DNA of 64,000 bases, from the NCBI GenBank assembly GCA_963707955.1, contig OY970176.1, forward strand, positions 928,001 through 992,000, read 5' to 3'. The position numbers and the translations under genes are program-made. The notes beneath the pieces were generated by a model, which had not been told where the DNA came from, did not search any database, and was given only the letters and a program-made list of their open reading frames with translations. Origin of the DNA: Candidatus Bathyarchaeota archaeon (GTDB lineage Archaea; Thermoproteota; Bathyarchaeia; Bathyarchaeales; Bathycorpusculaceae). Shown here piece after piece: positions 2,742 through 64,000 of this stretch. Within the stretch, counting starts at the first letter, position 1. Each line of letters starts with the position of its first letter.

Positions 2742-2938
2742 GCGTACGCTCCTGAAAGAAAGAGGCGTCACACCTATCTTGAATGGTCAGAGGCTGATGA
2801 TCAAGGGATAGGTTTCTCGCCTGCTTTAGCGCGCGCGATAGAGAAAGTTCGCGAAATCAGAAACGAAATAGAAAAGAATCCAAGAGTTACTGGACCCTGT
2901 TAGAAGCCGATGTGTGAGTGTCTCAGATAGGCGCTGCG

Positions 2939-3700
2939 CTATTGCACGCTCCTGCAGCACGCCGGGTTGTCATAGTAGTCTCTGGCGACTCGAATCATGT
3001 TGTGGTCCTGCGTCAGCATGGCTGTTTCGTCCATCCAGTCTGACAGCGTCAAGAGAGTGTTCAAATCAGAGATGAGCATTCCAACCGAGCAACAGAGTAA
3101 GCGTACATCGCCAAGGTTTGAAGAGTCTTCTTTCTCGAAAACTTCTTGCGTTACGGCGATGTTCAGTTTGACTCTCCGCTTTTCCTCTGCCTCTTTTAAC
3201 GACTCCTTGAGCTCTCTGAGAACTGCCGGAACTGAAATGAAAATCGTTATTTCTTTTCGGGCTGCTTCAATCAGGGCTTTCATCCTGTTAATGATGTTCT
3301 TTTGCCCGCGAATGATGTAAGCCACTTCCAGTTCCTCCGACTTGTCGGCGCTTTCATATATCGGTGTCAAAACGTCAACCAAAACATCTGCTTCCATCAT
3401 TTTTTCGTTGAACGCTTCGCTTATTTGCTGTTTCAGACTGGCGACGGCTTCCTTTGGCGGCACTGGATGATAGACGTTTGGGTTGCCCCTCTGCACCACG
3501 AGCATGCCCTTCTTGGACAGCCCATCTAAGGCATGGTAGATTTTTGAGTCAGGGATGCCTGTTTCCTTGCACAGCGCGCCCGCGGTCATGTTGGAATGCG
3601 TCAAGAGCGTAACGTAGGCCATCGCTTCCTGGGTCGGCAACTCGAGCTCTTTAAGCCGTGAAACCATTCTTTCTCGAACGACCGTTTCTGTTATGTTCAC
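2939..3700 (-). CDS. TrmB-family transcriptional regulator with vicinal Cys pairs
   Basis: N-terminal TrmB wHTH (EAMAYVTLL...TGIPDSKIYHALDGLSKKG); C-terminal effector domain with LLCCS and PACCRS. Confidence 0.85.
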   Translation of the reverse strand: MNITETVVRERMVSRLKELELPTQEAMAYVTLLTHSNMTAGALCKETGIPDSKIYHALDGLSKKGMLVVQRGNPNVYHPVPPKEAVASLKQQISEAFNEKMMEADVLVDVLTPIYESADKSEELEVAYIIRGQKNIINRMKALIEAARKEITIFISVPAVLRELKESLKEAEEKRRVKLNIAVTQEVFEKEDSSNLGDVRLLCCSVGMLISDLNTLLTLSDWMDETAMLTQDHNMIRVARDYYDNPACCRSVQ

Positions 3701-3750
3701 GAGGGGTCCCCCTTTTTCTAATGAGCGGTTGTCAGAGAACCCTTAAATAG

Positions 3751-3778
3751 TTTACTACTACCCAAAAGTAGTAGTAAA
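3751..3778. promoter_or_regulatory. perfect 11-bp inverted repeat, putative operator
   Basis: TTTACTACTAC-CCAAAA-GTAGTAGTAAA directly after TATA-like TTAAATA (3743-3749), between the divergent trmB-like and cmd genes. Confidence 0.75.
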
Positions 3779-3794
3779 AACGGGGCAACCTGAC

Positions 3795-4091
3795 TTGGAA
3801 GACAAAATCAAGTTGTTGATAGCCGTCGGGGCTTCCGTCACGGCGAATTGCCAGCCATGTCTCAAGACCGCCGTCACTCAGGCTCAGTCAGTAGGAGTAG
3901 ATAAGAAGGAAATCATCGAAGCAATCGCGATAGGAAGAGTTGTCAGAAGGGGAGCGTTTGGTAAAATGGACAAATTCGCTTCCAGTGTTACCGGAAAGCC
4001 TGTGGAAAAGTCGGACGATTGTCCGTTTGGCTCGACGGAAGAGGATGTCAAAGAATGGGTGGAGGAGGACGATCAGTGTGGTTGCAAGTGA
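3795..4091 (+). CDS. carboxymuconolactone decarboxylase/AhpD-like small protein
   Basis: LIAVGASVTANCQPCL CxxC motif of the CMD family; Cys-containing tail. Confidence 0.8.
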   Translation: MEDKIKLLIAVGASVTANCQPCLKTAVTQAQSVGVDKKEIIEAIAIGRVVRRGAFGKMDKFASSVTGKPVEKSDDCPFGSTEEDVKEWVEEDDQCGCK

Positions 4092-4167
4092 AAGATTGGA
4101 CCTTTGAGGACAAGGCCCAAGACTTGCTAAGTAGCGCGTGCAAGCCATCATGTGGGAGGTGATCTTC

Positions 4168-5013
4168 ATGGAAGAAGAAAAAGTGAAGAAGATAGTTCGA
4201 GAAGGCTACGCAAAGATCGCCAAGAAAGACAAGTCCTGCAGCGGCACATCAACTTCCTGTTGTTCCAACGGCTCCGACATGAGCAAGGAGATCACCAGAA
4301 GAATAGGCTACACTGAAGAAGAAATAGCCTCAGTTCCAGAAGGCGCAAACCTTGGCCTAGGATGCGGAAATCCTGTCGCGCTAGCTTCTCTGAAGAAAGG
4401 ACAAACTGTACTGGACCTCGGCTCAGGCGGAGGGTTTGACTGTTTTCTAGCAGCAAACAGAGTTGGAAAAGACGGCAAGGTCATTGGCGTGGACATGACA
4501 CCTGAAATGATTGACAATGCCAGAGAGAATGCGCGGAAAGGCAAGTACGAAAACGTTGAGTTCAGACTTGGAGAAATCGAAAATCTGCCTGTGGCAGACG
4601 GCACAGTTGACGTTGTTATCTCAAACTGCGTGATCAACCTGTCGCCGAACAAGAGGCGCGTGTTTGAAGAGGCCTTCAGAGTTCTAAAACCTAACGGAAA
4701 ACTGATGGTCTCCGACATCGTGCTTCTGAAGCAGCTCCCAGAAATCATAAGAAAAAACGTTCAAGCATACATCGGATGCCTCTCAGGCGCCGAAATGAAG
4801 AACAAATACCTGCAAATGATAGGAGACGCTGGTTTTCAAGAAGTCAAAGTCATCGAAGAGAATTACTTCCAAGTCGAAAACATGGCCAACGATCCGACCG
4901 CGCAATCAATAGTCAAGAAATCGGAGATATCCCCTGACAGAATCAAGAAAATCGCCAAAGCCGTGGCAAGCGTAAGAGTCTCCGGGGTCAAACCCACTAG
5001 TAGCGCGCGCTGA
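4168..5013 (+). CDS. arsM: arsenite S-adenosylmethionine methyltransferase
   Basis: GGAGGTGA RBS; N-terminal SCC, NLGLGCGNP, LDLGSGGGFDC, ISNCVINL, YIGC motifs. Confidence 0.92.
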   Translation: MEEEKVKKIVREGYAKIAKKDKSCSGTSTSCCSNGSDMSKEITRRIGYTEEEIASVPEGANLGLGCGNPVALASLKKGQTVLDLGSGGGFDCFLAANRVGKDGKVIGVDMTPEMIDNARENARKGKYENVEFRLGEIENLPVADGTVDVVISNCVINLSPNKRRVFEEAFRVLKPNGKLMVSDIVLLKQLPEIIRKNVQAYIGCLSGAEMKNKYLQMIGDAGFQEVKVIEENYFQVENMANDPTAQSIVKKSEISPDRIKKIAKAVASVRVSGVKPTSSAR

Positions 5014-6389: not shown

Positions 6390-6415
6390 GCCTCTAGAAG
6401 CTGGAAACAGCCAAC
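6390..6415 (+). repeat. 26-bp direct repeat copy 1
   Basis: GCCTCTAGAAGCTGGAAACAGCCAAC; 23/26 identical to 10041-10066. Confidence 0.6.
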
Positions 6416-6530
6416 AGTGCGCGCTGACCATAGAAACAGGTGATAGAGATTAGGAATTCATAAGTCATTTATTGGCGTTTGCTACCACGTGTCTTTAAAC
6501 CGATGATGCAACAATACGCGGAGATTCTGG

Positions 6531-6716: not shown

Positions 6717-6779
6717 ATGATAAGAAGAGGAGCGAAGTTACCGGGACATGCGCGGAGGGTCAAAAGCAAGAAAAGGCGC

Positions 6780-9484
6780 ATGGTTGAATATCATCAGTTT
6801 TATGAAGAACTAGTGCAGAGTGTTCAAATTGGCCTAGATGTTTGGAAGCTTGAAAACGCAGATGACTTGGGCTCCTTCAGGCTTGTTCTGTCCAATCCTG
6901 CGGCGGAAAAGGCAACTGGAGTACCAAGAAAAAAGGTTCTGGGAAAAACTCTTGCTGAGATCTATCCTGCTCTTCTCAAGACAGAGATTCCGAAGATCTG
7001 GGTGGAAGTCATTCAAACTGGCGAGACGAGGGAACTGGAGGAATTTCACTATGGCGATGAACGCATTTCCAACAAAGTCTTTCATCTGAAGGTTTTGCCG
7101 CTTCCCAACAACTGCGTTGGCTTGGCCGTAGAAGACATCACTGAACGCAGGAAAGCTGAAGAAGCTCTAAGCGAGTCTGAGAGGAAGTACAGAAGCGTCG
7201 TTGACAACATAGCCGTTGGCATCCTAGTGATAGGTTCGAACAAGGAGATTCTGGCTTCAAACGCCCAGATGAAAAAGTGGTTCCCGGATGTCGAGGTTTC
7301 GAAGAACCTGTTTGCTTCAGGGCTTTCAACAATCCTCCTCGAGATGGCATCTGCTCCTATTGTCCGACGTACAAGACGCTGGTAGACGGGCAAGTGCATG
7401 AATCGATTAAGAGTGCTTCTGTGCGCGGCGAGACCATGCATTTTAGGGTGACATCGTCTCCGATTAAGGATAAGGATGGCAAAGTCATTGAAGCCATTGA
7501 GATGGTGGAGGATGTCACTGAACGTATTCGGTTGGAGAAGGAGCTTAAGTCTCATTCTGAACGTTTAGAGAAACTGGTCAAAGAGAGAACGAGAGAGCTG
7601 GCGGAGGACGAAGAGCGTTCTAGAACGTTGAACCTGCTCGGTGGGAAGCTTAATGCTGCCAAGACGCTCGATGAGGTCTACAAATGGACATTAGACGCCA
7701 TGCATAAGACGTTGGGTTTCGAGCATGGCACATTCATGGCTATAGAGAAAAACAATCTTGTGATTCCGGGTCACCTGGGGCACACAAGACCTGTGCTTTC
7801 GAATCTGCGAATTGACGGAACAAGAGGCATAACTGTCAGGGCCGTAAAGACTCGTGAACCCATTCTTGTTTCAGACGTGAATAAAGAAAAAGATTACGTT
7901 GCAGTTTTCCCCGGCATTCAGTCAGAACTTGCTGTTCCAGTTCTTGGAGAAGACCGAGTACTGGGGGTTTTAGACGTGGAAAGCAGGAAACCCGGAGCAT
8001 TCAGCGAAAAAGACGCTACGTTGCTGCAGATTTTGGCTTCACATGCTGCAACGGCGATCAGCAACCAGTTGAAACGGATGGAGATTGAGAACCGCTCGTG
8101 CCAGATGGCTTCACTTATGAAAAGCTCGGCTGAGATGATTCACACCGCGGACTTACGGCGCCGCCTCCAAACGATCGCCGAGGCGATCAGAGAGTTCGGA
8201 TGGCGAAGAGTCGTCATCTCCTTGAGAGACGAAAACATGGAGATGAGAAGCCGAGATGACATGGTAGCCGTTGGCATAACGGATGAGGAAAGAGAATTTC
8301 TATGGAAAAACAGGCCCCCGGGACGCGTGGTCCGTGAGCGGCTGGGGCCAGAATATGAGCGTTTCAAAATCGGCGAATTCTTCTATCTTCCATGGAATGA
8401 TCCTTGGGTTAGAGAAAAGTACGGGTACAAGGCGAGTGTTCTGAGCCATCTTGAGCCTGAAGAGATGGTTGACTGGCATCCGCAAGACACTGTGTATGCT
8501 CCGCTTCGATTGGCTGACGGACGCGTCGTAGGTCGGCTAAGCATGGATGACCCTGTGGACGGAAGACGCCCGACTAAGGAGTCTTTGATGCCGTTGGAAC
8601 TTTTCTTGCATCAAGCAGCGGTCGCAATCGAGAATGCTCAGCTGATTCAGCAGTTGGATAGTGCCAAGGCCAAGATTTCGGAGTATGCCGGCGAGCTTGA
8701 AGTGAAGGTTCAAGAGCGGACAAAAGAGTTGATGGAAACTCAGGCGAAGTTGTTGAAGAATGAGAGGTTGGCGGCTATCGGCCAATTGGCGGGGATGGTT
8801 GGGCATGACCTGCGCAACCCACTTACAGGAATCGCTGGGGCAGCATATTACATTAAAGCAAATTCAAGGCCAAGGTTGGACCAGAGATCCAGGGAAATGC
8901 TTGATATCATTGAAGAAGGCGTTCAACGTTCAAACAAGATCATCGGCGATCTTTTGGAATACTCAAGGGAGATCAGACTTGAATTCTCGGAGACCACCCC
9001 GAAAGTGGTGCTGAAAGAGGTCTTGTCGCTTGTCAAGATTCGAAAAAACATTCACGTTAAGAACTTAACGAGAGACAACCCAAGGATCAGCGTTGACATC
9101 GAAAAAATGAGAAGAGTCTTCATCAACTTAATCAAGAACGCTGTCGAAGCTATGCCAAAAGGCGGGACACTGACAATAAGAAGCAAGAAATCAGACAACA
9201 ACGTAGAATTCTCTTTCACAGACACTGGAGAAGGCATGACAAAATGCGTACTTGACAAGCTTTGGAGCCCGCTTTTCACGACAAAGGCGAAAGGAATGGG
9301 CTTCGGCCTGCCGATCTGCAAACGAATGGTGGAGGCGCACAGGGGCAAGATCTCTGTTAAGAGTGCCATTGCCAAAGGATCCACGTTCACGATTACCGTT
9401 CCAATCAACCCTGTAACGGACGGAGGTGAACAGGTTTGGGTGAACATGCCAGAATCCTTGTTGTCGACGACGACAAAAGCATAA
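6780..9484 (+). CDS. PAS-PAS-GAF-GAF sensor histidine kinase (apparent 1-nt deletion near 7306)
   Basis: PAS repeats in 6717..7385 continue into 7277..9484; H-box GHDLRNPL, N-box NLIKNAVEA, G1 DTGEG, G2 GMGFGLPIC; start could also be 6717. Confidence 0.88.
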
Positions 9485-9913
9485 GAAAAACGTTAGAGGC
9501 AATACTCAAGGGCGAGGGCTACCACGTGCAAACTGCAGAAAACGGGAAGCAAGCCATAGAAAAGACCCACAGCGGCAATTACAATTTAGCATTGATAGAC
9601 ATTTGCCTGCCAGACATGGAAGGAACAGAGACTTCTGACAAAAATGAAAGACACGACGCCTAAGATGCGAAAGATAATCATCACAGGCTACCCATCCCTG
9701 CAAAACGCCGTTGAAGCTCTAAACAGGGAAGCAAACGCCTACATACTGAAACCTTTCGACGTCAAAGAGGTTCTTCAAACAATAAGAGAACAATTGAACA
9801 AACAAGAAGCAGAAAAAACGTTCAGCCAAGACAAAGTCACCGAGTTCATAGAGACGCGAGTAAAAGAACTGGAACCTCAGAAGAGCACAGCGAGCCGTAA
9901 TCGGCGCGCTTAA
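9436..9913 (+). CDS. stand-alone response regulator receiver (apparent 1-nt insertion at 9631)
   Basis: ILVVDDD...LIDICLPDMEG then IIITGY...YILKPF split over two frames. Confidence 0.88.
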
Positions 9914-10040
9914 ACGTTGCCAATCTTTTCCCTCGTGTGCAGCAGTCCAACTTTAAACCATTTTTGTATAGGGACATGCAGGCCCACCTTTCGACGCTAT
10001 GCAATTAGGCGTTTTAGACGCGTTCGGAGATAGCTAACCA

Positions 10041-10066
10041 GCCTCTGGAAGCTGGAAAAAACCAAC
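10041..10066 (+). repeat. 26-bp direct repeat copy 2
   Basis: GCCTCTGGAAGCTGGAAAAAACCAAC; matches 6390-6415. Confidence 0.6.
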
Positions 10067-10174
10067 TTGCCAGCCAATCCTGATTGCACGCACCATCGCG
10101 CGCTAGCGAATCGTTGACTCATCAGCAAAACCTATATTTATAGAGCAATCAAAGATGACTTGTGCACGGGAAAC

Positions 10175-11647: not shown

Positions 11648-11732
11648 GGCGAAACAAGCGCAAGAGAAAGAGGAAGTAGAGCTAGTGCAACTGCAAGATG
11701 GATTAGGGCAAGGAACAAGAACTTATCGCTTG

Positions 11733-12656
11733 ATGGAACCAGTCACGATTCATGAGTTCAAGGCCTTTGCTGCACGGAAAAGAGTTGTGACGATAGAAAA
11801 CCAACAAGTGGACATTGGAAATAAATGGAAGATCTCTGAGTTTGGTCCGCCGAAAGAATATGTTCCTGAAGTTCATACGGTTTGGAGTTTTCCGAACAGA
11901 GGAGACTGGGCTACACACTTGGGCAATTACCGAGGCAACTGGTCACCCTACATTCCGAGGAATCTGATACTCAAGTACACGAATACAGATGACTTGGTTC
12001 TGGACCAGATGATGGGTTCCGGGACAACTCTTGTAGAATGTAAATTGCTAGGCAGAAACGCCGTTGGAGTTGACATAAACAGAGACGCCATTATGGTTGC
12101 CCTTGATAGACTGAATTTCTCCTATAACCCGCTGGACTCAGACTATCCTGAAGACCTCAAAATCAGAACGTATGTTGGGGATGCGCGGAACCTAAATCTT
12201 ATCGAAGACGATTCGATAGACCTCATTGCCACTCATCCGCCATATACGGGAATAATCGCTTATACGAACGGTAGAGTTGAAGGTGACCTTTCGAGTCAAA
12301 AACTCGGAGGTTATCTGAAAGAAATGCGGGTTGTCGCAGAGGAAGCCTTCAGAGTTTTGAAGCACAAAAAGTGCTGTGCCGTATTGATAGGTGACACGCG
12401 GAAGCATCTTCACTACGTTCCTGTATCTGCCAGAGTTTTGGAAGTGTTCTTAGACGCAGGTTTCGTGTTGAAAGAAGACATCATAAAACTTCAATGGAAG
12501 ACGAAGACGACAAGAGAGAAGTGGAGAGGCAAAAAGTACGAGTTCTACAAGATAGCTCACGAACACCTCTATATCTTTAGGAAGCCTGCTGAAGGAGAAA
12601 AACTGTCACCGTTAAAGTACAGCAAGAGATGGCACGAGGAGTCGCTCGAAAATTAA
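11733..12656 (+). CDS. orphan amino-methyltransferase (N4-C/N6-A DNA methylase-like)
   Basis: SAM-binding DQMMGSGTT precedes catalytic ATHPPY; YRGNWSPYIPRNLI; no neighbouring endonuclease. Confidence 0.75.
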   Translation: MEPVTIHEFKAFAARKRVVTIENQQVDIGNKWKISEFGPPKEYVPEVHTVWSFPNRGDWATHLGNYRGNWSPYIPRNLILKYTNTDDLVLDQMMGSGTTLVECKLLGRNAVGVDINRDAIMVALDRLNFSYNPLDSDYPEDLKIRTYVGDARNLNLIEDDSIDLIATHPPYTGIIAYTNGRVEGDLSSQKLGGYLKEMRVVAEEAFRVLKHKKCCAVLIGDTRKHLHYVPVSARVLEVFLDAGFVLKEDIIKLQWKTKTTREKWRGKKYEFYKIAHEHLYIFRKPAEGEKLSPLKYSKRWHEESLEN

Positions 12657-48525: not shown

Positions 48526-48543
48526 TGCCGAGGAAAACAAGGA

Positions 48544-49833: not shown

Positions 49834-49839
49834 AGACTT

Positions 49840-51262: not shown

Positions 51263-54019
51263 TCACTTTGCCAGTCTTCTGGCAACCCATTTCCTGATTT
51301 CTTCCGCGAGGATCACGATGCATGCGAGAAGCGCAAGAAACGCCCAGTCGAGTAGGCCTAGACCAGTGGTGCCGAAGAGACTCTGCAGCAGTGGGATGTA
51401 GACTATGGCGGATATTATGGTTATCTGAGAGGCTATGCCGAGCCAGATCCACTTGTTACTCTTGAGACTGGTTTTGAGAATTGACACTTTGCTCGTTCTG
51501 CACGCTAGAACGTTGCCCACTTGAGCGATGACGATGCCGGCAAACGTCATGGTCGTACCTTTAGCGTACGCGCCACTTGTATAGAACGAGCTGCTAGGAG
51601 ATAACTGCATTCCAAGGTGCCATCCGCCTGCTTGCCATGCCATGAAGCAGCCGATCATTGCTCCGGCGGAGATTATTACGCCGATGTACAGTGATCGGAG
51701 GAACACTTTTGTGTTGAACAGTCGTTCTTTGACGCCTCGAGGTTGCTCCTGCATTATTCCTATCTCCGGCGGCTCTCGGCTTAAAGCCAGTGAGGGGATT
51801 ACGTCTATGCCCAAATCTATGGCCAAGATTTGAACAACAAGAAGAGGCAGAGGTATGTTTAACAGTGCGTAAAGCACGTAGGGAATCAGTTCTGCCCAGT
51901 TGTGCGCGAAGACGTAGACTATGAATTTTCTTAGGTTTTCGTAGATCGTGCGGCCGGATTCTATTGCTTTTACTATCGAGGCGAAGCTGTCGTCAAGTAG
52001 CACCATGTCAGCCGCCTCTCTTGCCACGTCCGTCCCTGATAGACCCATCGCGACTCCTATGTCTGCCTCTTTCAGGGAAGGAGCATCGTTTGCTCCGTCT
52101 CCGGTGACGGCTACGATTTCGCCGTGCTGTTTGAGAGCTTTGACTATGCGAAGTTTCTGTTCTGGTGACACCCGGCTGAAGATAATGTTTGCCTTCTTGG
52201 CTTCATCGTAGATCTGCTGGTTGCTGAGGGCGTCCACGTCGACGCCTCGAATGATGTGGCTGTTCTCCGGTTCTACTATGCCTACTTCTTCGGCTATGGC
52301 TTGTGCTGTCGGACCATAGTCTCCTGTTATGATCGTGACCTTTATGCCTGCTTGCCTAGACAGTTTCACTGCTTCAGGAACTTCTGGGCGAGGTGGGTCT
52401 TTCATCGCTGCCAGTCCAACGAGGATCATGTCCCTCTCGACATCATCAACCTCAGAAAGCTGGTCTTTCGGCAGTTCCGAGTAGGCAGCGGCTAGGATGC
52501 GAAGGCCCTCGCTTGCGAATTCATGGATTTTTTCTTCAACGAATGACAAGTGTTCCTTGGTCAGTGTCTCTATTGTGTCGCCGACTAGTATTCTGTTGCA
52601 TATGGAGAGTATGCTTCGGGCGCCACCCTTCGTGTAGACTGAGACCTCGTGGTCATGGTTGTGGATCGTTGTCATCCTTTTGCGTTTGGAGTCAAAAGGG
52701 ATTACGCGGACAGTGGGTTTTTCAACGAGCATGCTCTTGACGCTCAGCCCATACTTTAGGGCAGTAACAAGCAAGGCGCCGTCCGTTGGATCCCCTACGA
52801 TACTCCATGACCTGTTCTTGTCCGACGGCGGTTCAACTTTAGCGCTGTTGCACAGCGCCGAGATCTCAAGAAGTTTCTCAATCCCGTAGGAGTCTTCCTT
52901 CGTTAATGGTGGGTTCTCAGAAGTGAAATCGCCCGTCGGGTCGTATCCGACGCCTGAAACTTCGATTACCTTGCCGTTAACCCAGATCTTCGTGACGGTC
53001 ATCTCGCCTCTTGTGATTGTCCCTGTTTTGTCTGTGCATATCATCGTCACGCTGCCTAGGGTCTGGACGGCAGAGAGCCGTTTGACCAGCACGTTCTCCT
53101 TCACCATTTTCAGCACGTTTATGGCTAGGGCACTTGATACTGTTACCTGCAAGCCTTCGGGGACCAGTGCCACCATTACGCCTATCATGAACAGTATGCT
53201 GGCGAGCCAGCCTGTGTGAAGTAAGATTTTGCTGACTAGGAAGAAGATGGCCCCTACTGTTATAGCTGAGATGAAGTCGTACTTGGCCGTGTAGGCTATT
53301 TCTTTCTGCAGAGGACTCTGCTCTTCGCTTATTTCCTGAGTTAAGCCTGCGATCTGTCCGAACTTTGTGCTCATGCCCGTCTTGACGACGACAGCTTTTG
53401 CGCGGCCCGTGGCGACGCTCGTGCTCATGAAGACAAAGTTTGGCACGTCCAAGTACGTGGCGTCAACAGTCTCCACTGGTTTGTCTGTTCTTGGCTGAGG
53501 CTCAGACTCGCCGGTCAAAGGGACGTTGTTTGTCCACAGCTCGTAGGCCTCGATCAGCCTAGCATCCGCCGGTACACGGTCGCCTTCTTCTAGGATTATG
53601 AGGTCTCCTGGAACAAGGTCCCTTACCACTATTTTCTTGAGCTCTCCGTCGCGGACGACCTTGGCGTACTCGGGCATCCACCTCTTCAGCGCTTCCATGG
53701 CCTTTTCTGCTCGCCACTCTTGGAAGAGACTGAAGACCATGTTGACAAGAACGACTGCCAGTATGATGATGCTCAGTTGCCACAAGCCTCCGAAGGTTGC
53801 CAGCAAGCTTGCGAAGAGCAGCAGCACGGAGAACAGGTCTTTGAGGAGCGTGAGAAACTTGTAAGCCATGGACACGTGTTTTTTCTCGATAAGCGTGTTG
53901 GTTCCATACTTGGCGAGGCGTTTGTCGGCCTCGTCAGTGGTTAACCCCGTGGGTGAGGTTTCCATCAAATCGAAAACTTCTTTGACCGGCAGAGCCGCAG
54001 CGTCCTCCAACAAAAACAC
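51263..54019 (-). CDS. P2-type cation-transporting ATPase
   Basis: TGES, VPEGL, DKTGT, GDPTD, FDSKRK, TGDGAND. Confidence 0.94.
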   Translation of the reverse strand: MFLLEDAAALPVKEVFDLMETSPTGLTTDEADKRLAKYGTNTLIEKKHVSMAYKFLTLLKDLFSVLLLFASLLATFGGLWQLSIIILAVVLVNMVFSLFQEWRAEKAMEALKRWMPEYAKVVRDGELKKIVVRDLVPGDLIILEEGDRVPADARLIEAYELWTNNVPLTGESEPQPRTDKPVETVDATYLDVPNFVFMSTSVATGRAKAVVVKTGMSTKFGQIAGLTQEISEEQSPLQKEIAYTAKYDFISAITVGAIFFLVSKILLHTGWLASILFMIGVMVALVPEGLQVTVSSALAINVLKMVKENVLVKRLSAVQTLGSVTMICTDKTGTITRGEMTVTKIWVNGKVIEVSGVGYDPTGDFTSENPPLTKEDSYGIEKLLEISALCNSAKVEPPSDKNRSWSIVGDPTDGALLVTALKYGLSVKSMLVEKPTVRVIPFDSKRKRMTTIHNHDHEVSVYTKGGARSILSICNRILVGDTIETLTKEHLSFVEEKIHEFASEGLRILAAAYSELPKDQLSEVDDVERDMILVGLAAMKDPPRPEVPEAVKLSRQAGIKVTIITGDYGPTAQAIAEEVGIVEPENSHIIRGVDVDALSNQQIYDEAKKANIIFSRVSPEQKLRIVKALKQHGEIVAVTGDGANDAPSLKEADIGVAMGLSGTDVAREAADMVLLDDSFASIVKAIESGRTIYENLRKFIVYVFAHNWAELIPYVLYALLNIPLPLLVVQILAIDLGIDVIPSLALSREPPEIGIMQEQPRGVKERLFNTKVFLRSLYIGVIISAGAMIGCFMAWQAGGWHLGMQLSPSSSFYTSGAYAKGTTMTFAGIVIAQVGNVLACRTSKVSILKTSLKSNKWIWLGIASQITIISAIVYIPLLQSLFGTTGLGLLDWAFLALLACIVILAEEIRKWVARRLAK

Positions 54020-54329
54020 ACCTGCCCAAAATTCTCAGAACAACAGGGAAACTAGAATCCCTTTAAGGAACTCTTCTCATTCGTGCTGTCTGCTGGGAAA
54101 ATGCCAGTGCTGGAAGCATTTGTCGGTCTCACCGTTTTCTTTGACATAAGCAACTTTGACCGTCCGTTTAAAACATGAGGTTTCCATAACCGTTAGATTT
54201 CTGGCTGGTCCTCATTGTTTTGCTGTTCACATTGACAAAAGGGTCGAATTTAAGCTGATCGGAATGGTTTGCGCGCTTTTCGGCTAATCAGGTCCGTTCT
54301 ACGGTTTCTGTTTCCTATTTTGCCCGGCT

Positions 54330-54513
54330 ATACGCTACATCCCTGTATTCGCGTTTTGACCCCGTCTATTCCACCCTTCCCCTCCCCCCTAGGGTACTAG
54401 TACTGCGCGTAGGCGTTGGACAAGGCCCTCGTGGCTAAGCGCGGGCTCGAGGCCGAGCGCGTGTCGAGCCCTCGGCAGAGGTCTGGGCAAGGGTGGTGAC
54501 TTTTCAATGCGCT
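54330..54513 (-). repeat. 184-bp dispersed element, copy 2 (inverted)
   Basis: Reverse complement matches 41788-41971. Confidence 0.92.
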
Positions 54514-59859: not shown

Positions 59860-61008
59860 GTGAGCTTCGATTTCAAGCGAAGACTAGTCAGCCTTCAAGA
59901 AAGGATGGAAGAGCTCGACTTAGACCTAGTCGTGTACGGGTCATGCCAGAATTTTCAATATTTGACAGGACTCTTGTTCGACTGGCGTCATGGAACAGAC
60001 CTTGCAAGCCAAGCAAACAACGTCTTTGTTCCCAGAAAGGGGCGGCCGATTCTCACGCTCGGCGAGGAATGGTCAAAACAAGCTGCTCAGACCTGGGTAA
60101 AAGAAGTCAGGACGCTAGAAGAGAAAGACAGTTTTGAGAAACTGATTCGAAAAGTCATATCGGACTTGGGATTGAACGTGAAGAAAGTTGGAATTGGAGA
60201 CCATGTCTGGGGATCAACCGTCATAGAAATCGCAAAAGCGGTGAAAAGCAGGGTTTTCTGCAAAGCTGAACATCTCATGGACCATGTTAGAATGATCAAG
60301 GATTCTGGAGAAGTTTGTAAGCTGAGGAAAGTCGCAGAGTTGACCGACAAAGCGGTCGAGGCAGCCACGCAGAAGATTAAGAATGGTGTGACTCAGCGAC
60401 AGATGCAGATCGAGGTTGAGTTTGCAGGCAGACGTTTGGGGGCGTCGGACGTTTCCTTCCCAGCTACGGTTGGCTTCGTCAAGTCTGGGTCTAAGATCTC
60501 GCTAAACCCGTTTACCTACCCAAAAGAGAAAGGTTTGGTGCCTAGTACTTCGATAGCTTTTGACGTAGGGTTTGCGCTTGACGGGTACTGCTCCGACTTT
60601 GGAAGAAGCTTCTACTTTGGACCTGCTGGCAGCGAGGTGAAGAAGGGATACCAAGCTTTGCAACAGTCAGTTGTCGAAACGGTGGAAAAAATGAGGGAAG
60701 GAAGCATGCGTGTCTGCGACGTCTTCCCAGCAATAGAAAAGACGCTGGACAGATTGGGCTACGGCGATTACTTACGCGCTCGTTTACAAACGAAATCAGT
60801 CGGACACAACATTGGTGTTGAAGTGCATGAGCCCCCATGGCTGAGTCCCGACTATGGCGAAAGACTGCAATCGAACATGGTAATGGCTTTGGAGCCTAAG
60901 GTCTGGCACAAAGGCGAATACTACCTTCGAGTGGAAGATATGGTACTAGTGGGGCCACGAAAGACCGAGTTCTTGACAAAGTTCGACAGAAAACTCTTCC
61001 AGTTATAG
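59860..61008 (+). CDS. Xaa-Pro aminopeptidase, M24 family
   Basis: NFQYLTG, RMIK, DVG...GYCSD, GHNIG.EVHE.P, EP, RVED. Confidence 0.9.
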   Translation: MSFDFKRRLVSLQERMEELDLDLVVYGSCQNFQYLTGLLFDWRHGTDLASQANNVFVPRKGRPILTLGEEWSKQAAQTWVKEVRTLEEKDSFEKLIRKVISDLGLNVKKVGIGDHVWGSTVIEIAKAVKSRVFCKAEHLMDHVRMIKDSGEVCKLRKVAELTDKAVEAATQKIKNGVTQRQMQIEVEFAGRRLGASDVSFPATVGFVKSGSKISLNPFTYPKEKGLVPSTSIAFDVGFALDGYCSDFGRSFYFGPAGSEVKKGYQALQQSVVETVEKMREGSMRVCDVFPAIEKTLDRLGYGDYLRARLQTKSVGHNIGVEVHEPPWLSPDYGERLQSNMVMALEPKVWHKGEYYLRVEDMVLVGPRKTEFLTKFDRKLFQL

Positions 61009-61020
61009 CGCGCGCTAGGT

Positions 61021-62217
61021 TTATCCGAAGTTCGTTAAAGCTAGGACTATGTCAGCCAAGTCTATTCTGCCGTCATGGTTCAAATCGCAGTCAGGGTTCC
61101 ATCTTGGATGACCTGGATACGAACCGAAGGCGTTCACTAACATCATAACGTCTTGCATGTCAACTTTTCCGTCGCCGTTGACGTCTCCCAACAGGGTGAT
61201 CCTCAACGTGCCGTCGACTAGAAGATTGTTGGCTACGTTGGTTTCTCCAGGAACAGGCTCTGCATAAGCGCTTATGGTATAGTTGCCTACGGCAAAGCCA
61301 GTGGTGTTCCACGTGAACGTGACTGTCATAGAGTTGCTGGCCGTTAACGTAACGTTTTCTGATCCTACTATGGTTGCGTTGGCGTATGCCGTGACGTTGA
61401 AGGTTTCAGTGTAGCCGCCCTGGTTTGCCACTGTGACGTTTATGTCGGCGCTGAAGCCTTCTTCAACCACAGTCTTAGAAAGGGCAATATCGGTGACGGC
61501 TACATCATGTCCAGGTTGAAACTCGTAAACAAAGTTCCCCGTGTTTACCGCGGGAAGTTCCCACCCGCTTGGCCAATAGTAGAGACCCATCCAAGCTGGA
61601 TCGAACGTGAACGATGAACTCACTTGCGTGTTTGTGCTGTTCACTTGCGCTATTATTCTAAACTCTATCTGCACCAGTGTACCGGTTCCGTTGAAGGTCC
61701 ATATTGGAGTGCCTTGTATAAATGCGGCACCGACGTCGACCTCTTGATAAGTGCTGTTATAGGTGATGAGTTGTTCTGCCGGAACTATCACGTCACTTGC
61801 GGCTGCAACGGCTCCAGCGAAGACGTTGTCTGGTGGAAGCCAATATCCGACGTATTGCAGTGCGGTGTCCTTGAACACCAAACCTGCGCCCCATCCCCAC
61901 AGGCTTTCCGCATTCGTTACGGTGAGGTTTACGAAGAATGTGGAACCTGAAGATGTTTCGTTGGAATAGAATACGAAATCTGGAGTTCCAACGTATCGAA
62001 CAGTGGATGAAGCATTCCATGCGGATGGGTTACTCGCAGGCCCAGGATTCAAGATACTAATACTCGGATTGTCGGTCGCGTGAACGCGCCTAACCAGTTG
62101 AATGTTGAATGCAAATGTTAACGTGCTTATTACGAACAAAAATAGCATTACTGCAGAAACAGTCTTCCTAAACAACCTAATCCCTTCCTCAAACTCTAAA
62201 TCAACACTTTCTCTCAT
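61021..62217 (-). CDS. secreted cohesin-like + CARDB + dockerin protein
   Basis: FFVNLTV...GTGTLVQIEF cohesin-like; HDVAV..VTVANQG..ETFNVT..FTWNTT CARDB; GDVNGDGKVD...DLNHDGRID dockerin; start uncertain. Confidence 0.85.
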   Translation of the reverse strand: MRESVDLEFEEGIRLFRKTVSAVMLFLFVISTLTFAFNIQLVRRVHATDNPSISILNPGPASNPSAWNASSTVRYVGTPDFVFYSNETSSGSTFFVNLTVTNAESLWGWGAGLVFKDTALQYVGYWLPPDNVFAGAVAAASDVIVPAEQLITYNSTYQEVDVGAAFIQGTPIWTFNGTGTLVQIEFRIIAQVNSTNTQVSSSFTFDPAWMGLYYWPSGWELPAVNTGNFVYEFQPGHDVAVTDIALSKTVVEEGFSADINVTVANQGGYTETFNVTAYANATIVGSENVTLTASNSMTVTFTWNTTGFAVGNYTISAYAEPVPGETNVANNLLVDGTLRITLLGDVNGDGKVDMQDVMMLVNAFGSYPGHPRWNPDCDLNHDGRIDLADIVLALTNFG

Positions 62218-62435
62218 AAAGGTTTATGAAAGAAACTTCCATAAGCAGCCTCATCGACAATTGTCGTTCATACCAACCGTTCTGCTGAAACCAGCCTTCA
62301 TACGCGCTCAGAAATCTAGCGCGCGCTCTGTCTTGGCAGGCAATAGATTGCGCAATAAAAGTGCAATCAATTGAGACATAAGCGCGAAAATATAATAACG
62401 GGCGAAGATCATAGCTTTTACAGGCACGTTCTACC

Positions 62436-63962
62436 ATGCAAGTGAATACTATTGAGAATGCGGTGCTTTCAGTCGCGGTTAACCCGATTCTCAAGCGCCT
62501 AGTGAGTAGTTTCGACGAAGAATGCCCCGAGCATGGAAGCCTACTTTTAAACTCCCTTAAGGATTTCTTAGGAGAACAGGTGGAACTATGCCCACGATGT
62601 CAACGGATAAGCCGCAACATCGCTAGGCCATTTTACGAAGTTGGAAGTCGCCTCCTTCGAGTGGACAAGGGATTCATGAGAAAACAGTTTCTGAAAGACC
62701 AGTATGGTGGGGCATGGTTCAGAGGCTTCGGTTTGATGATGAAGGCAGTTGAAAAGTACGGTGTACACATACCTTTCACGCCTGCAGGACCGTTCGAAAT
62801 CGTTTGGAACGTCACATACCAATGCAATCTGCGATGCAAACACTGTTACGAGAACGCGGGAGGAAAAAACCGTACAGAACTTTCAACAGACGAAGCTTTA
62901 CAAGTCGTAGACAAGTTTTCCAACATAGCCGGCATAGGTTTGCCCGCGTTGTCCTTCAGCGGCGGCGAACCTCTGGTGAGAAAAGACTTCTTTGACGTCG
63001 TAGCCTACGCTAGGAAACGTATACCTTACGTAAGCATAGCGTCGAATGGAACCCTCATGACGAAAGACAACGCGAAAAGGATCAAAGACGCCGGCGTGGA
63101 CTACGTTGAAATAAGCGTTGACGCAGCAACACCGCAGCTACATGACACTTTCCGAGGCATACCAGGAGCCTTCGAGAGGACAATGTTAGGCGTGAAAAAC
63201 TGTGCCGAAGAGGGCATAGACACATGTATTGCAACGGTCCTGCACAGGGACAATTTTGCGGAGACAGAAAAGATCATAGGATTAGCCAAAGAAATGGGCT
63301 TGAGGTTCATGCACTTCAACTATATTCCGACTGGCAGAGCAAAAGAGCACGTGGAACTGGATTTGACGCCAGACGAGAGGCTTCACGTGTTGCAGTTGCT
63401 GGGAAAGGAAATAACGGGTCTGTATTTACAGGCGAAAGAAGAAGAACTCAAGTCTGGAAAGTCAAACGTCAAGGTTGACAGGTTTTTCAGCACATGCCCA
63501 CAATATGCCCCTGTGACGAAAGAGCTCTCACGTCAAATAGGTGAGAAATTCTTGGTTGAAGCCCATTACGCAGCAAAAAAAGGCGTTGAAAACACAGCCA
63601 ACTTTCTGGGCGGGTGTGGGGCGGCCCGATTGTACTGTTGCCTCGAACCGAACGGCGACATAAAACCATGCGTGTTTTTCCCAACCAACGAACGCAATGT
63701 CGTCGGCAACGTGCTGAAAGACAGTTTCGAAGAGATATGGGATCGCAACCCGCTTTTTTGGAAACTGCGAACAAGAGAAAATCTGGAAACCTACGTTGTT
63801 AATGGCAAAGCCGTGGGATGCGGCAAGTGTCCAGACAAGTACATCTGCGGAGGATGTCGAGCAAGAGCCTACAGTTACTTCGGCGGAAATGTGGATGCAC
63901 CAGACATAGGGTGTGTGCACAACAAAGCTCTGTGGAACAAGATGGTAGTCGACAAAACGTGA
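62436..63962 (+). CDS. radical SAM/SPASM protein (candidate Gms-like lipid-modifying enzyme)
   Basis: CNLRCKHC, SGGEP, SPASM GCGA...PC...CGKC....ICGGCRARA. Confidence 0.88.
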   Translation: MQVNTIENAVLSVAVNPILKRLVSSFDEECPEHGSLLLNSLKDFLGEQVELCPRCQRISRNIARPFYEVGSRLLRVDKGFMRKQFLKDQYGGAWFRGFGLMMKAVEKYGVHIPFTPAGPFEIVWNVTYQCNLRCKHCYENAGGKNRTELSTDEALQVVDKFSNIAGIGLPALSFSGGEPLVRKDFFDVVAYARKRIPYVSIASNGTLMTKDNAKRIKDAGVDYVEISVDAATPQLHDTFRGIPGAFERTMLGVKNCAEEGIDTCIATVLHRDNFAETEKIIGLAKEMGLRFMHFNYIPTGRAKEHVELDLTPDERLHVLQLLGKEITGLYLQAKEEELKSGKSNVKVDRFFSTCPQYAPVTKELSRQIGEKFLVEAHYAAKKGVENTANFLGGCGAARLYCCLEPNGDIKPCVFFPTNERNVVGNVLKDSFEEIWDRNPLFWKLRTRENLETYVVNGKAVGCGKCPDKYICGGCRARAYSYFGGNVDAPDIGCVHNKALWNKMVVDKT

Positions 63963-64000
63963 CTCTTGCGCAACGCGCGCAGGAAGCAGTTCGCAACAGA

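Follow-up and report, generated by a model that had tools for sequence, protein, structure and literature searches.

Alternating GC tracts in the window

The window, the whole stretch of 64,000 nucleotides analyzed here from a Candidatus Bathyarchaeota archaeon, is punctuated by pure alternating GC runs. All 16 runs listed in the first-pass annotation (nine of 8–9 nt and seven of 6–7 nt) lie where it placed them; its list of the shorter class was nonetheless incomplete, as the true total is 11 and runs at 3574, 5160, 42321, and 45297 were omitted. The leftmost long run (2829–2837; GCGCGCGCG, 9 nt, preceded by TA) separates the convergent genes for a DUF2341 protein (1176–2741, + strand) and trmB (2939–3700, − strand). 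The next (5003–5010; GCGCGCGC, 8 nt, again after TA) covers the final three sense codons of an arsenite methyltransferase gene (4138–5013, + strand) and is immediately followed by the TGA stop. A gene fragment had been thought to break off here, but the encoded methyltransferase matches the NCBIfam arsenite methyltransferase profile from position 2 to position 270 of its 272, and the arsM gene is therefore full length. Farther along, the run at 18850–18857 (CGCGCGCG, 8 nt) lies 37 nt past the stop codon of a Rieske gene, and that at 19077–19084, GCGCGCGC within the palindrome GGCGCGCGCC (19076–19085), lies 146 nt past the stop of a macro-domain gene on the − strand. The latter tract is conserved in the related locus L007 (808–815) and degenerate in another, L001 (CGCGCACG).

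Four tracts fall in a variable island (32969–37482). In its place, L001 has 1.6 kb and L007 has 3.1 kb of different DNA, and the 71 related loci contain no match to any of the island's four ORFs. The first of these tracts (33058–33066; CGCGCGCGC, 9 nt) is 52 nt past the stop of a DUF72 gene and 90 nt in from the island's left end, and the second (33969–33974; GCGCGC) is 3 nt past the stop of ORF 33483–33965. The third (36089–36097; GCGCGCGCG, 9 nt) shares its first G with the end of the TAG stop codon of a weak ArsR-like ORF (35799–36089, + strand), 20 nt from the stop of a gene at 36118–37365 (− strand). The fourth (37472–37479) is CGCGCGCG within TACGCGCGCGTA (37470–37481), 10 nt past the stop of a glyoxalase-family gene (37490–37942, − strand). 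Toward the right end of the window, GCGCGCGC at 61008–61015, within TAGCGCGCGCTA (61006–61017), overlaps the TAG stop of an M24 peptidase gene (+ strand) and is 5 nt from the stop of a dockerin/CARDB gene (− strand). The three palindromes are thus as originally quoted. The last long run (62319–62326; GCGCGCGC, preceded by TA) lies between the divergent starts of a dockerin gene (− strand, 62217) and a radical SAM gene (+ strand, 62436); the other eight follow a stop codon by at most 150 nt.

Among the shorter runs, that at 6419–6424 (GCGCGC, 6 nt) is 3 nt past the left copy (6390–6415, + strand) of a 26-nt direct repeat, whose right copy (10041–10066, + strand) is identical at 23 of 26 positions; together, the copies bracket a decayed kinase/response-regulator module. 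GCGCGC at 9904–9909 forms part of the last codons of a truncated response-regulator ORF (9644–9913), and CGCGCGC at 10097–10103, followed by TAG, is upstream of an ABC ATPase gene starting at 10160. Other short runs lie between divergent gene starts (16460–16466; GCGCGCG, 7 nt), 53 nt before the right arm of a 185-nt inverted repeat (54271–54276; GCGCGC), and 11 nt past the radical SAM gene stop (63974–63980; CGCGCGC). The overlooked runs at 3574, 5160, and 42321 are inside trmB, an unsupported 72-aa ORF, and a LeuRS fragment, respectively. None of the nine long runs is in the interior of a supported coding sequence. Housekeeping stretches are indeed devoid of runs of at least 6 nt (19085–33057 and 45303–54270). 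Genes for end joining, encoding a LigD primase-polymerase, Ku, and a LigD ligase with phosphoesterase, occupy 29178–32233 (+ strand) and contain no tract.

The nine runs of at least 8 nt comprise 12 overlapping (GC)4/(CG)4 8-mers, against approximately 1.5 expected (1.4–1.7 under Markov models of orders 0–3 and 2.5 under order 4). Runs of this length exceed Markov expectation 7- to 8-fold in the window. In an unbiased scan of all window 8-mers, GCGCGCGC is the most over-represented (z = 10.4), and no dinucleotide repeat other than GC reaches 8 nt in the window. Runs of 6–7 nt are ordinary in number (11 for GC versus 11 for AC and 8 for GT), as chance or base composition would have it, and are skewed in position only, with 8 of 11 non-coding. 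For the long runs, however, chance is already refuted and retains virtually no probability: besides the excess in the window and the first rank of GCGCGCGC, long runs surpass Markov expectation 9- to 50-fold in the intergenic DNA of the whole data set, and tracts are conserved in orthologous positions of MAGs that were assembled independently.

A palindromic site in related loci

The window and 71 related loci, all sampled around a single gene, AlaRS, amount to 1.25 Mb (1.19 Mb for the 71 loci). The enrichment over a Markov model is also seen in this set. GCGCGCGC occurs 46 times, whereas a model trained on intergenic DNA alone predicts 0.9–5. Moreover, 53 of 65 long runs are non-coding although predicted non-coding DNA makes up only 12.7% of the set, these counts being approximate because genes were called by a home-made codon score. 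The non-coding share climbs with run length from 4 to 9 nt (10%, 15%, 30%, 59%, 80%, and 87%).

Run length peaks at 8 nt and never exceeds 10 nt in 1.25 Mb; the 71 loci contain 144, 41, 39, 12, and 5 runs of 6, 7, 8, 9, and 10 nt, respectively, and none of 11 nt or more. One phase is preferred among exact 8-mers, with 37 copies of GCGCGCGC and 8 of CGCGCGCG. TA precedes 11 of these 37 and follows 11 of 37. When the 130 flanks of the 65 runs are pooled, A is the neighboring base in 65 and T the second base in 54, and the sequence carries no information farther out than these 2 nt in either direction. Roughly one-third of tract sides bear TA, and 4 of 50 even-length runs have it at both ends. 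Each tract is a copy of a defined 8–12-bp palindromic site, with the consensus t-a-GCGCGCGC-t-a, rather than a microsatellite or Z-DNA tract. The site has no fixed distance to starts or stops. All three types of spacer carry it, including 11 tracts in 21.4 kb of convergent and 9 in 46.9 kb of divergent spacers, a difference that is weak (chi-square approximately 5, p approximately 0.08).

A single clade of the AlaRS tree, with 25 rows and 72 kb of intergenic DNA, holds 49 of the 65 tracts. Beyond it, 15 tracts are found in 74 kb, 12 of them in two genomes with tract-free close relatives. This patchiness fits a mobile agent. Close relatives differ in L053 compared with L037, L039, and L050 and in the window compared with L001. 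L001 has the Ku/LigD operon yet not a single run of at least 8 nt in 22.8 kb.

Tracts at homology breaks

In close relatives, homology breaks coincide with tracts more often than the null predicts. Six of 23 assessable tracts lie 0–4 nt from the edge of a homology block, where the null mean is 0.81 and six or more were reached in 4 of 20,000 simulations; a stricter test confined to non-coding DNA gives 3 of 19 and only P = 0.037. All six cases were inspected by eye, and two of them are window tracts, those at 18850 and 37472. The remaining 17 tracts are not at a break, and most breaks lack a tract: of the 11 edges that separate the window from L001, only two have one. Tracts are also about five-fold sparser where gene adjacency is conserved (0.16 versus 0.80 per intergenic kb elsewhere, p = 0.007), and this persists in spacers of at least 50 nt (2 tracts in 11.7 kb of conserved pairs versus 35 in 43.0 kb). 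The earlier idea that tracts mark junctions is partly supported, in that tracts accompany changes in gene content. The proposed bracketing of modules by tract pairs is looser: left borders are often approximate, the run at 16460 being 139 nt left of the start of L001 homology (16605), and module borders on either side are often 90–140 nt from a tract.

Individual junctions are precise to the base. At 18850, homology to L001 ends at 18859; the corresponding position of L001 still reads CGCGCGC, with different DNA on its right. For the tract at 37472, L007 homology begins at 37473 and L001 homology at 37483, with GCGCGCG retained in L007; because the DNA just upstream differs among the window, L007, and L001, the site has been used more than once. 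The tract of L034 is at a derived junction, since L056 and L024 agree beyond the break. L043 has undergone a deletion of approximately 290 nt that truncates a FUN14 gene and has GGCGCGCGCTAG at the joint, and L021 and L023 differ by a 13-nt indel (TAGCGCGCGCTA plus T) in surroundings that are 90% identical.

MITEs with GCGCGC tips

The clade that carries the tracts also harbors a family of MITEs, small non-autonomous transposons 212–307 nt long that carry inverted repeats of approximately 36 nt. Full copies are present in L029 (12965–13271) and L056 (20368–20579), and solo-repeat remnants in L007 (16446–16500), L071 (21197–21219), and L056 (2025–2046). The window has no full copy. It contains a weak match to the inverted-repeat model at 9941–9987 (− strand, E = 0.14), with a tip decayed to GTGGGC, and a decayed, likewise weak solo repeat at 45275–45302 (− strand, E = 1.2), whose tip, CGCGCG at 45297–45302, is the intergenic run missing from the earlier list.

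Every clear MITE tip ends in GCGCGC, and TA precedes 4 of 8 tips. L056 reads GCGCGC-MITE-GCGCGC where L024 has a single GCGCGC, and L043 has a 9-nt tract in place of the right end of the L029 MITE. The elements are rare, with two full copies and three clear solo repeats versus 65 tracts in 1.25 Mb. Neither an autonomous element nor a matching transposase was seen in the window and related loci; the sole transposase found, an IS6-type gene in L071, does not adjoin a tract. Because TA flanks only about one-third of tract sides and a clean TA duplication is absent at both full MITEs, a Tc1/mariner-type origin is unproven.

Origin of the tracts

GCGCGCGC is probably not a gene signal but a break-and-rejoin site tied to a small transposon. 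Given that the MITE tips are GCGCGC, often after TA, the tract is most likely an excision remnant, a preferred entry sequence, or both; the two look alike, since an element with a palindrome at each end can be read as bounded by inverted or by direct repeats. The preferred explanation, with a probability of about 45%, is that tracts are the footprint and/or target of cut-and-paste transposition whose breaks are mended by end joining. Within one clade of Bathyarchaeia, the site would act on the DNA itself, being cut by a putative transposase and rejoined there, and an excision remnant would consist of two abutted MITE tips, TAGCGC + GCGCTA. Double-strand breaks at the site would be mended by end joining, plausibly by the Ku and LigD proteins that the genome encodes, and such repair might sometimes delete or swap flanking DNA or capture foreign DNA. 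Because only events in dispensable DNA would survive, tracts would gather in intergenic DNA, at stop codons, and along accessory-gene borders, while conserved operons would stay tract-free. Weighing against this explanation are the full 8–9-mers at junctions, where one-sided resection of an excision break would be expected to leave half-sites, the rarity of the MITEs, the many tracts away from breaks and breaks without tracts, and the absence of long tracts from the 22.8 kb of L001 in spite of its Ku/LigD genes.

An unlikely alternative is that the palindrome belongs to each transcription unit, either as the site of a dimeric host protein or as an insulator or terminator. Units would then be exchanged whole, which would place junctions at the palindrome, and the MITE would merely use the palindrome as a safe landing place. 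A symmetric 8–12-bp motif is what a homodimer would be expected to bind, and the strict exclusion of the site from coding sequence, the eight window tracts shortly after stop codons, and the somewhat denser convergent spacers point the same way. At 18850 and 37472, furthermore, the tract stays with the conserved gene as neighboring DNA changes, and in L022 and L043 it is 24–36 nt upstream of the AlaRS TATA box. Such an element, however, is hard to reconcile with the variable distance to starts and stops, the occurrence in all three spacer types with only a weak difference among them, and the five-fold rarity between conserved gene pairs; the terminator proposed in the first-pass annotation is not supported. 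The neighboring genes have no common function, and close relatives differ in whether they have the site. In addition, binding sites born by point mutation would not arise in the way seen here, with a perfect 12-mer making up a single 13-nt indel and standing at derived junctions.

Other readings retain breakage and change its cause. Alternating GC is the textbook Z-DNA-forming sequence, and tracts of this kind are known breakage sites in other systems, so a structure-prone repeat that flips to Z-DNA or slips in replication could break by itself. An 8-bp tract is too short for a stable B-to-Z transition, though, and a simple repeat would be expected to yield longer runs in equal phases, rather than runs that end at 10 nt with a 37:8 bias and a sequence-specific t-a flank. 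Alternating GC of at least 6 and at least 8 nt is also reported to be generally suppressed in prokaryotes (PMC4060949). This reading is disfavored and highly improbable, and the Z-DNA-prone breakage originally invoked is unlikely. Cleavage of the palindrome by a rare-cutting endonuclease, with Ku/LigD rejoining the ends by fill-in, deletion, or DNA capture, is very unlikely. A palindromic 8-mer has the form typical of type II restriction sites, and lineage-to-lineage patchiness, junctions at tract edges, the Ku/LigD genes, and a solitary N6/N4 DNA methylase gene predicted at 11685–12656 would all suit it. Restriction sites should be avoided, however, whereas the tract is enriched approximately 10- to 50-fold. 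No endonuclease gene was identified, no step would create sites de novo, as in L034, and the identical bases at the MITE tips are left unexplained.

Exchange of gene cassettes between tracts by a dedicated site-specific recombinase, as in an integron with a minimal palindromic site, is quite unlikely. Tracts do form arrays at 0.5–3-kb spacing in variable DNA (33058, 33969, 36089, and 37472 in the window; 13916 through 21602 in L021), and some are common to two genomes that differ on one side. L022 has a 3.6-kb insert between perfect 43-nt direct repeats starting with a tract, and L053 has two tracts 2 nt apart. Against this, no integrase or recombinase gene adjoins the tracts, and neither the window nor any of the islands examined has one; the site-specific recombination first suggested is not supported. 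Cassettes are oriented both ways, and module borders often miss the tract. Because the ORFs of the window island recur in none of the 71 loci, no tract-bounded cassette has been seen in two contexts. Finally, attC and dif sites have arms, whereas the information in the tract is limited to 8–12 bp, without arms and without attC-like symmetry beyond 2 nt per side.

Abundance and shape of the GC tracts

A scan of the window for alternating G/C runs gave 20 maximal runs of at least 6 nt, nine of which measure 8 to 9 nt (nine in 64 kb, or about one per 7 kb). The coordinates reported for these nine in the first-pass annotation are exact, and its list of 6- to 7-nt runs was incomplete by four 6-nt runs: 3574 within trmB, 5160 within an unsupported 72-aa ORF, 42321 within the N-terminal ORF of LeuRS, and 45297 in an intergenic spacer. 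The window has a G+C content of 48.8% and near-neutral CpG and GpC odds. Counted as overlapping (GC)4/(CG)4 8-mers, there are 12 occurrences against 1.4 to 1.7 expected under Markov models of orders 0 to 3, and in a comparison of all 8-mers with an order-3 model, the core 8-mer GCGCGCGC is the most over-represented in the window (z = 10.4). No dinucleotide repeat other than GC reaches 8 nt in the window. At 6 to 7 nt, the count for GC (11) resembles those for AC (11) and GT (8), so the excess is confined to runs of at least 8 nt, termed long runs here.

Relatives were gathered in one scan of genome contigs with the window's AlaRS, which returned 71 loci totaling 1.19 Mb (numbered L001 to L071), all sampled from the single neighborhood around this gene; 70 of the 71 are titled Bathyarchaeia or Bathyarchaeota. 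Twenty of these loci contain long runs, 56 in total, and the 71 loci hold 78 overlapping 8-mers against 26 expected. Runs of 6, 7, 8, 9, and 10 nt number 144, 41, 39, 12, and 5 in the loci, and none is 11 nt or longer. Non-coding runs alone number 45, 26, 36, 13, and 4 over the same lengths, that is, with a peak at 8 nt.

In the window and loci together, exact 8-mers take the form GCGCGCGC in 37 cases and CGCGCGCG in eight. TA stands 5ʹ of 11 and 3ʹ of 11 of the 37 GCGCGCGC copies; across the pooled 130 flanks of the 65 long runs, A is the immediate neighbor in 65 and T the second base out in 54, with TA at both sides in 4 of 50 even-length runs. From the third flanking base outward no conservation was seen in the window or loci, and complementarity of flank to flank beyond the second base is at background (9 to 17 of 50 pairs). 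The unit is an 8-bp core with weak t-a shoulders, and its full-length form is TAGCGCGCGCTA. When 300 nt on either side of the tracts were compared all-versus-all by BLAST, no conserved element of greater length emerged; the matches reflect synteny, plus one 43-nt repeat in L022 and one inverted repeat of 77 to 84 nt in L021.

Placement relative to genes

Most long ORFs of the window were assigned by Pfam, and the archaeal genes among them (TiaS, tRNA-splicing endonuclease, aEF-2, and TrmB) point to an archaeal source. Neither Rfam, at the gathering threshold, nor ARAGORN found an ncRNA in the window. A solitary N6/N4-type DNA methyltransferase gene lies at 11685-12656 with no adjoining nuclease gene, and no homologue of it occurs in the 71 loci. 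Genes for dockerin-bearing secreted proteins are found at 61021-62217 of the window, at 6901-7698 and 19262-21454 of L022, and at 16838-17497 of L023; their places vary among genomes, and several adjoin tracts.

The long runs of the window occupy a range of gene-end positions. Those at 2829, 18850, and 19077 lie in convergent spacers, 33058 is 52 nt past the stop of a DUF72 gene, and 37472 is 10 nt past the stop of a glyoxalase-family gene. Two runs overlap TAG stops: 36089, at the end of a weak ArsR-like ORF and 20 nt away from a converging gene's stop, and 61008, with a converging stop 5 nt away. The run at 62319 sits between divergent starts. The run at 5003 covers the last three sense codons of an arsenite methyltransferase gene. 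A gene fragment had been thought to break off here; because the match to NCBIfam PRK11873 spans 2-270 of 272, the gene is full length, and the tract is excluded as a point of gene truncation. The proposal that housekeeping blocks lack tracts was borne out, with zero runs of at least 6 nt in 19085-33057 and 45303-54270.

For the window and loci together, genes were called with a home-made and crude codon score (log-odds, with ORFs of at least 350 aa as the training set), by which 53 of the 65 long runs fall in the 12.7% of bases called non-coding. The remaining 12 comprise two in a gene's final 12 nt, three in the opening 60 nt of a longest-ORF call, and seven in gene interiors. The non-coding share of GC runs is 10%, 15%, 30%, 59%, 80%, and 87% at lengths of 4 to 9 nt, and that of other dinucleotides is mostly 12% to 32%, the exceptions being AT runs of 7 to 8 nt and a few very sparse bins. 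Under a Markov model trained on intergenic DNA, GCGCGCGC is expected 0.9 to 5 times in the intergenic DNA of the whole set and occurs 46 times.

Among classifiable spacers, tracts number 11 in 21.4 kb of convergent, 23 in 71.9 kb of tandem, and 9 in 46.9 kb of divergent DNA, a weak 3ʹ bias (chi-square about 5, p about 0.08, calculated by hand). Within tandem spacers their positions are scattered from stop to start. This scatter, together with the presence of tracts in every spacer type, indicates that the motif is generally intergenic and not a terminator or operator of fixed place. Start codons abut tracts (CAT before or ATG after) in about 5 of 65 cases by eye, which is near chance.

Distribution among relatives

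The AlaRS tree has 66 rows, the five loci with partial genes being excluded. One clade of 25 rows (SH-aLRT 100) accounts for 49 of the 65 long runs, window included, in 72 kb of predicted intergenic DNA. Outside this clade, 15 runs occur in 74 kb (both sums were added by hand from the tree output), 12 of them in L053 and L046, whose close relatives have no long runs; the one other run is in L019, a locus excluded from the tree. By AlaRS, the window is closest to L007 (amino-acid identity of 95%), followed by L001 (94%). L001 has zero long runs in 22.8 kb, though its DNA is 91% identical to that of the window. One locus, L018, is titled as a bacterial MAG (Candidatus Acidoferrum); its AlaRS nests in Bathyarchaeia beside L023 (support 95), so the contig looks mis-binned.

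Gene-order change and junctions

Gene adjacency could be judged only near AlaRS. After clustering of 1186 predicted proteins, the spacers of 21 tract-bearing genomes were classed by the conservation of their flanking genes. Spacers between genes that are adjacent in at least three other genomes hold two tracts in 12.6 kb of intergenic DNA (0.16 per kb), those between a widespread gene and a non-conserved neighbor hold 14 in 19.7 kb (0.71 per kb), and those with two rare flanking genes hold 20 in 20.8 kb (0.96 per kb). Tract density is thus lower at conserved adjacencies than elsewhere (p = 0.007). Both tracts in conserved spacers belong to L043, and one of them (9894) lies at a deletion joint.

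Junctions were located as the ends of BLAST blocks between close relatives, each read by eye. At window position 18850, homology with L001 spans the Rieske gene, 37 nt of its 3ʹ spacer, and CGCGCGC(G), and then ends; homology returns after 154 nt in the window and 48 nt in L001. At 37472, homology with L007 begins at the tract, which in both genomes is 10 nt past the glyoxalase-family stop. Upstream of this point the DNA is different in each of the window, L007, and L001, which implies at least two events at one spot. At L034 17391, L056 and L024 agree with each other beyond the shared ...CCTGATGC, and L034 continues with GCGCGC and unrelated DNA; the agreement of the other two beyond the break places the L034 tract at a derived joint. 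In L043, the tract at 9894 coincides with a truncated FUN14 gene, where about 290 nt are absent relative to L029 and the joint reads GGCGCGCGCTAG, and at 21136 about 330 nt have been replaced and the tract abuts the cyclophilin start codon. Homology between L023 and L021 begins directly after CGCGCGC at L023 5046. L021 and L023 also differ by a 13-nt indel consisting of TAGCGCGCGCTA plus T in DNA that is otherwise 90% identical; the potential outgroup L018 ends before this site.

Across eight genome comparisons, 6 of 23 tracts of at least 7 nt lie within 4 nt of a block edge. The null, drawn from random positions in non-coding DNA and the outer 60 nt of genes, averages 0.81, and a count of six is reached in 4 of 20000 simulations. 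With strict non-coding calls only, three of the six cases drop out (3 of 19, P = 0.037). The other 17 of the 23 tracts are away from edges, several of them deep in DNA without a homologue, and most homology edges have no tract (for the window against L001, a tract is present at 2 of 11 edges).

Larger inserts also occur at tracts. In L022, a 3.6-kb insert with dockerin and NosD-like genes precedes AlaRS and lies between perfect 43-nt direct repeats that start with T-GCGCGCGC and include the AlaRS TATA region. L053 has inserts of 6.6 kb and 1.1 kb, both absent in L039; the left joint of the larger one, TAGCGCGTGC, provides a new AlaRS stop. Downstream of LeuRS, an intron-bearing tRNA gene (L022 18847-18955, 109 nt, 50.6 bits) was found by Rfam in L022 only and missed by ARAGORN, and sequence homologous by alignment occurs in L015 and L053. 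The DNA past the tRNA differs among L022, L015, and L053, and each has a tract, at approximately 3, 36, or 130 nt beyond the tRNA.

The neighborhood shows further variation. Many relatives have AlaRS and LeuRS adjacent or a few kb apart, and directly abutting in L039. The window has about 15 kb of other genes between the two (27280-42144), which makes this a spot where islands are built. Part of this stretch is a conserved row of seven genes at 27335-33005 encoding an aldo-keto reductase with an Fe-S domain, a HAD hydrolase, the LigD primase-polymerase, Ku, the LigD ligase and phosphoesterase, and DUF72, within which the LigD primase-polymerase, Ku, and LigD ligase/phosphoesterase operon occupies 29178-32233. 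Most or all of this row is also present in L001, L007, L013, L015, and L016, and L014 has its first genes as far as the locus end. Window LeuRS is split into two overlapping ORFs, 42145-42879 (244 aa) and 42704-45064 (786 aa), which points to a frameshift or a sequencing error; it is a single ORF of 960 to 971 aa in L022, L026, and L053, and L043 and L015 too have partial LeuRS ORFs, which adjoin tracts. A GC-rich inverted repeat pair of 185 nt (41788-41971 and 54330-54513; 87.6% identical, 12.4 kb apart) brackets the block from LeuRS to a P-type ATPase gene; it is absent from all 71 loci and has no Rfam match at E values up to 0.1. The two-component module at 6717-9913 is decayed, with its PAS/GAF histidine kinase in overlapping ORFs (6717-7385 and 7277-9484) and a response regulator (9644-9913) of which only the final third of the receiver domain is left (profile positions 65-111). 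Two copies of a 26-nt direct repeat (6390-6415 and 10041-10066) that agree at 23 of 26 positions bracket this module, and a GC run of 6 to 7 nt follows each of them.

A MITE family with GCGCGC tips

A search for inverted repeats beginning with GCGC recovered two full MITEs, of 307 nt in L029 (12965-13271) and 212 nt in L056 (20368-20579). They share inverted repeats of about 36 nt that belong to one family, in which a GCGCGC tip is followed by TGGCTTGTCCCTAAAATGG-like sequence; all four ends have GCGCGC as their outermost six bases. Neither has coding capacity, and the L029 copy has no Rfam match at E values up to 0.1; the family appears to be undescribed. Profile searches additionally found three clear solo repeats, each also with GCGCGC at its tip, at L007 16446-16500 (inside the island that replaces the variable island of the window), L071 21197-21219, and L056 2025-2046. 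In the window, the inverted-repeat pattern had no match with up to three mismatches, and two weak solo remnants were detected, one at 45284-45302 (E = 1.2), which has the 45297 run as its tip, and one at 9952-9983 (E = 0.14), with a decayed tip. TA precedes four of eight MITE tips, and the TA duplication is not clean.

Two sites relate the MITEs to tracts by position. Where L056 has GCGCGC-MITE-GCGCGC, L024 has a single GCGCGC, the right flanks being non-homologous; and in L043 a 9-nt tract occupies the position that corresponds to the right end of the MITE in L029, with only weak homology of the flank. Tracts outnumber MITEs by about 10 to 1. Among 111 ORFs of related loci searched with Pfam (83 neighboring and 28 from islands), there was no matching transposase or integrase near tracts and no recurrent enzyme gene beside them, and no autonomous, transposase-coding partner of the MITE was found in the 1.25 Mb of the whole set. 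The Pfam searches identified one gene of IS6 type in L071 and one GIY-YIG gene in L046, neither of which adjoins a tract. The former is an IS6-family (IS240-type) transposase gene at 14919-15842; the same locus ends in the start of a Cas6 gene (22426-22788).

Interpretation

Base-exact junctions, a motif that behaves as an indel unit, tracts at derived joints, and patchy spread among relatives are hard to obtain from selection on a binding site and come naturally from a process acting on DNA itself. The MITE, with its GCGCGC tips, shows that DNA ends of precisely this sequence are handled by some enzyme in these genomes. The tracts therefore probably take part in DNA breakage and rejoining. 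More specifically, a tract may be what remains of the two abutted tips (TAGCGC + GCGCTA) of a cut-and-paste element, a preferred entry site for such elements, or both, and end joining would seal the breaks made at the tract, with DNA occasionally being lost, replaced, or captured. We assign this footprint-or-target reading a probability of roughly 0.45, because footprint and target are inseparable here, no transposase was seen, and MITEs are some ten-fold rarer than tracts.

The main competing explanation is a host boundary or binding element that serves mobile DNA as a landing pad. It would account for the tract staying with the conserved gene at 18850 and 37472; we consider it unlikely. Transcription termination, raised as an alternative in the first-pass annotation, fails on the 9 of 43 classifiable intergenic tracts that lie between divergent starts, 62319 of the window included. 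Microsatellite slippage would yield an open-ended, roughly geometric length distribution and does not fit the capped lengths with a peak at 8 nt. A Z-DNA or purely structural cause would match the alternating composition; the B-to-Z transition needs a longer alternating tract than those seen here, and the maximum of 10 nt, the 37:8 phase preference, and the specific shoulders argue against it. Length peak, preferred phase, and shoulders together make a poor fit to either of these two.

A more far-reaching reading is speculative, with the odds well against it: that accessory genes in a Bathyarchaeia clade turn over by an undescribed process in which a minimal 12-bp palindrome, TAGCGCGCGCTA, is both cut site and joint, a transposase-like enzyme makes or uses it, Ku/LigD seals, and each event leaves or renews a tract, giving rise to tract-bounded arrays beside core and tRNA genes. 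If true, an archaeal genome would for the first time be seen to be shaped by transposon-type footprints and by gene capture through end joining. Should the link of the motif to junctions and to MITEs hold genome-wide, the motif would serve as a simple sequence marker of where recently exchanged DNA begins and ends in Bathyarchaeia, which are uncultured and very abundant, and would allow a natural test of the idea that Ku/LigD, rare in archaea, repairs transposon breaks and captures DNA.

Comparison with known systems

One close likeness is to the footprints and targets of cut-and-paste elements (Tc1/mariner/IS630 type, and MITEs such as Correia elements). When mariner-type elements excise, bases of their tips stay behind between TA duplications, and certain IS elements insert at sequences that resemble their own ends. 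The tracts are likewise short palindromes of element-tip bases, with TA frequent on both sides, a non-coding place, a link to indels, and a MITE with matching tips in the same genomes. They differ in their approximately 10 to 1 excess over elements, the unclean TA duplication, and the lack of a transposase among the genes searched. In addition, mariner-type elements leave 2 to 3 nt per end, whereas a remnant here would be longer, at 4 to 6 nt per end. To our knowledge, excision footprints are hardly known in prokaryotes, which mostly do without end joining.

REP/BIME elements are similarly intergenic palindromic repeats that are entered by mobile elements and mark rearrangement-prone spacers. 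REPs are hairpin-forming units of 20 to 40 nt spread by RAYT transposases, and REP/BIME elements are insertion targets for some IS elements. In contrast, the unit described here is 8 to 12 bp, forms no stable hairpin by itself, and is accompanied by no RAYT-like gene that we saw.

Integron attC arrays share with the tracts the pattern of repeated sites between accessory genes in variable arrays. However, an attC site is a long, imperfect palindrome that contains conserved core sites, whereas tract symmetry stops 2 nt outside the 8-mer, flank pairing beyond that point (9 to 17 of 50) being background; genes also lie in both orientations, and no integron integrase (IntI) was found among 68 window ORFs or 111 related-locus ORFs. 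The suggestion that the tracts are cassette-recombination sites thus does not hold for sites of the attC kind. Archaeal integrons do exist, according to the excerpted text of a preprint (bioRxiv 10.1101/2022.02.06.479319). Full-text literature searches of limited coverage found no description of the GCGCGCGC motif in archaea among the matches listed, no relevant paper on non-homologous end joining in Bathyarchaeota, and none on attC integrons in Bathyarchaeota; for intergenic palindromes in Bathyarchaeia, only a defense-systems paper matched.

HIP1 (GCGATCGC) of cyanobacteria, as portrayed in excerpts of PMC4390886 and PMC5861425, is the nearest known parallel among over-represented octamer palindromes, being also an 8-bp GC-rich palindrome that strongly exceeds Markov expectation in one phylogenetic group and whose function is unsettled. 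The same excerpts state that it can exceed one copy per gene and tie it to orphan methyltransferases. GCGCGCGC is likewise far above expectation (z = 10.4; 46 intergenic copies against 0.9 to 5). However, HIP1 as described in those excerpts (PMC4390886, PMC5861425) is far more abundant and not confined to spacers, whereas the GCGCGCGC tracts occur about once per 7 kb, in non-coding DNA (nine runs in 64 kb; 12 of 65 in predicted genes).

In prokaryotic genomes, alternating GC of at least 6 nt and at least 8 nt is generally suppressed, in the wording of the excerpt of PMC4060949. The tract-rich Bathyarchaeia clade runs counter to the suppression described in that excerpt and, if the link holds genome-wide, would stand as a counter-example to it. 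Over-represented short palindromes are known elsewhere (HIP1, REP, and uptake sequences), and the roles of most are still argued; here, the motif can be linked at single-base resolution to the insertions, deletions, and replacements that set near-identical genomes apart, and also to a transposon family with the same tips.
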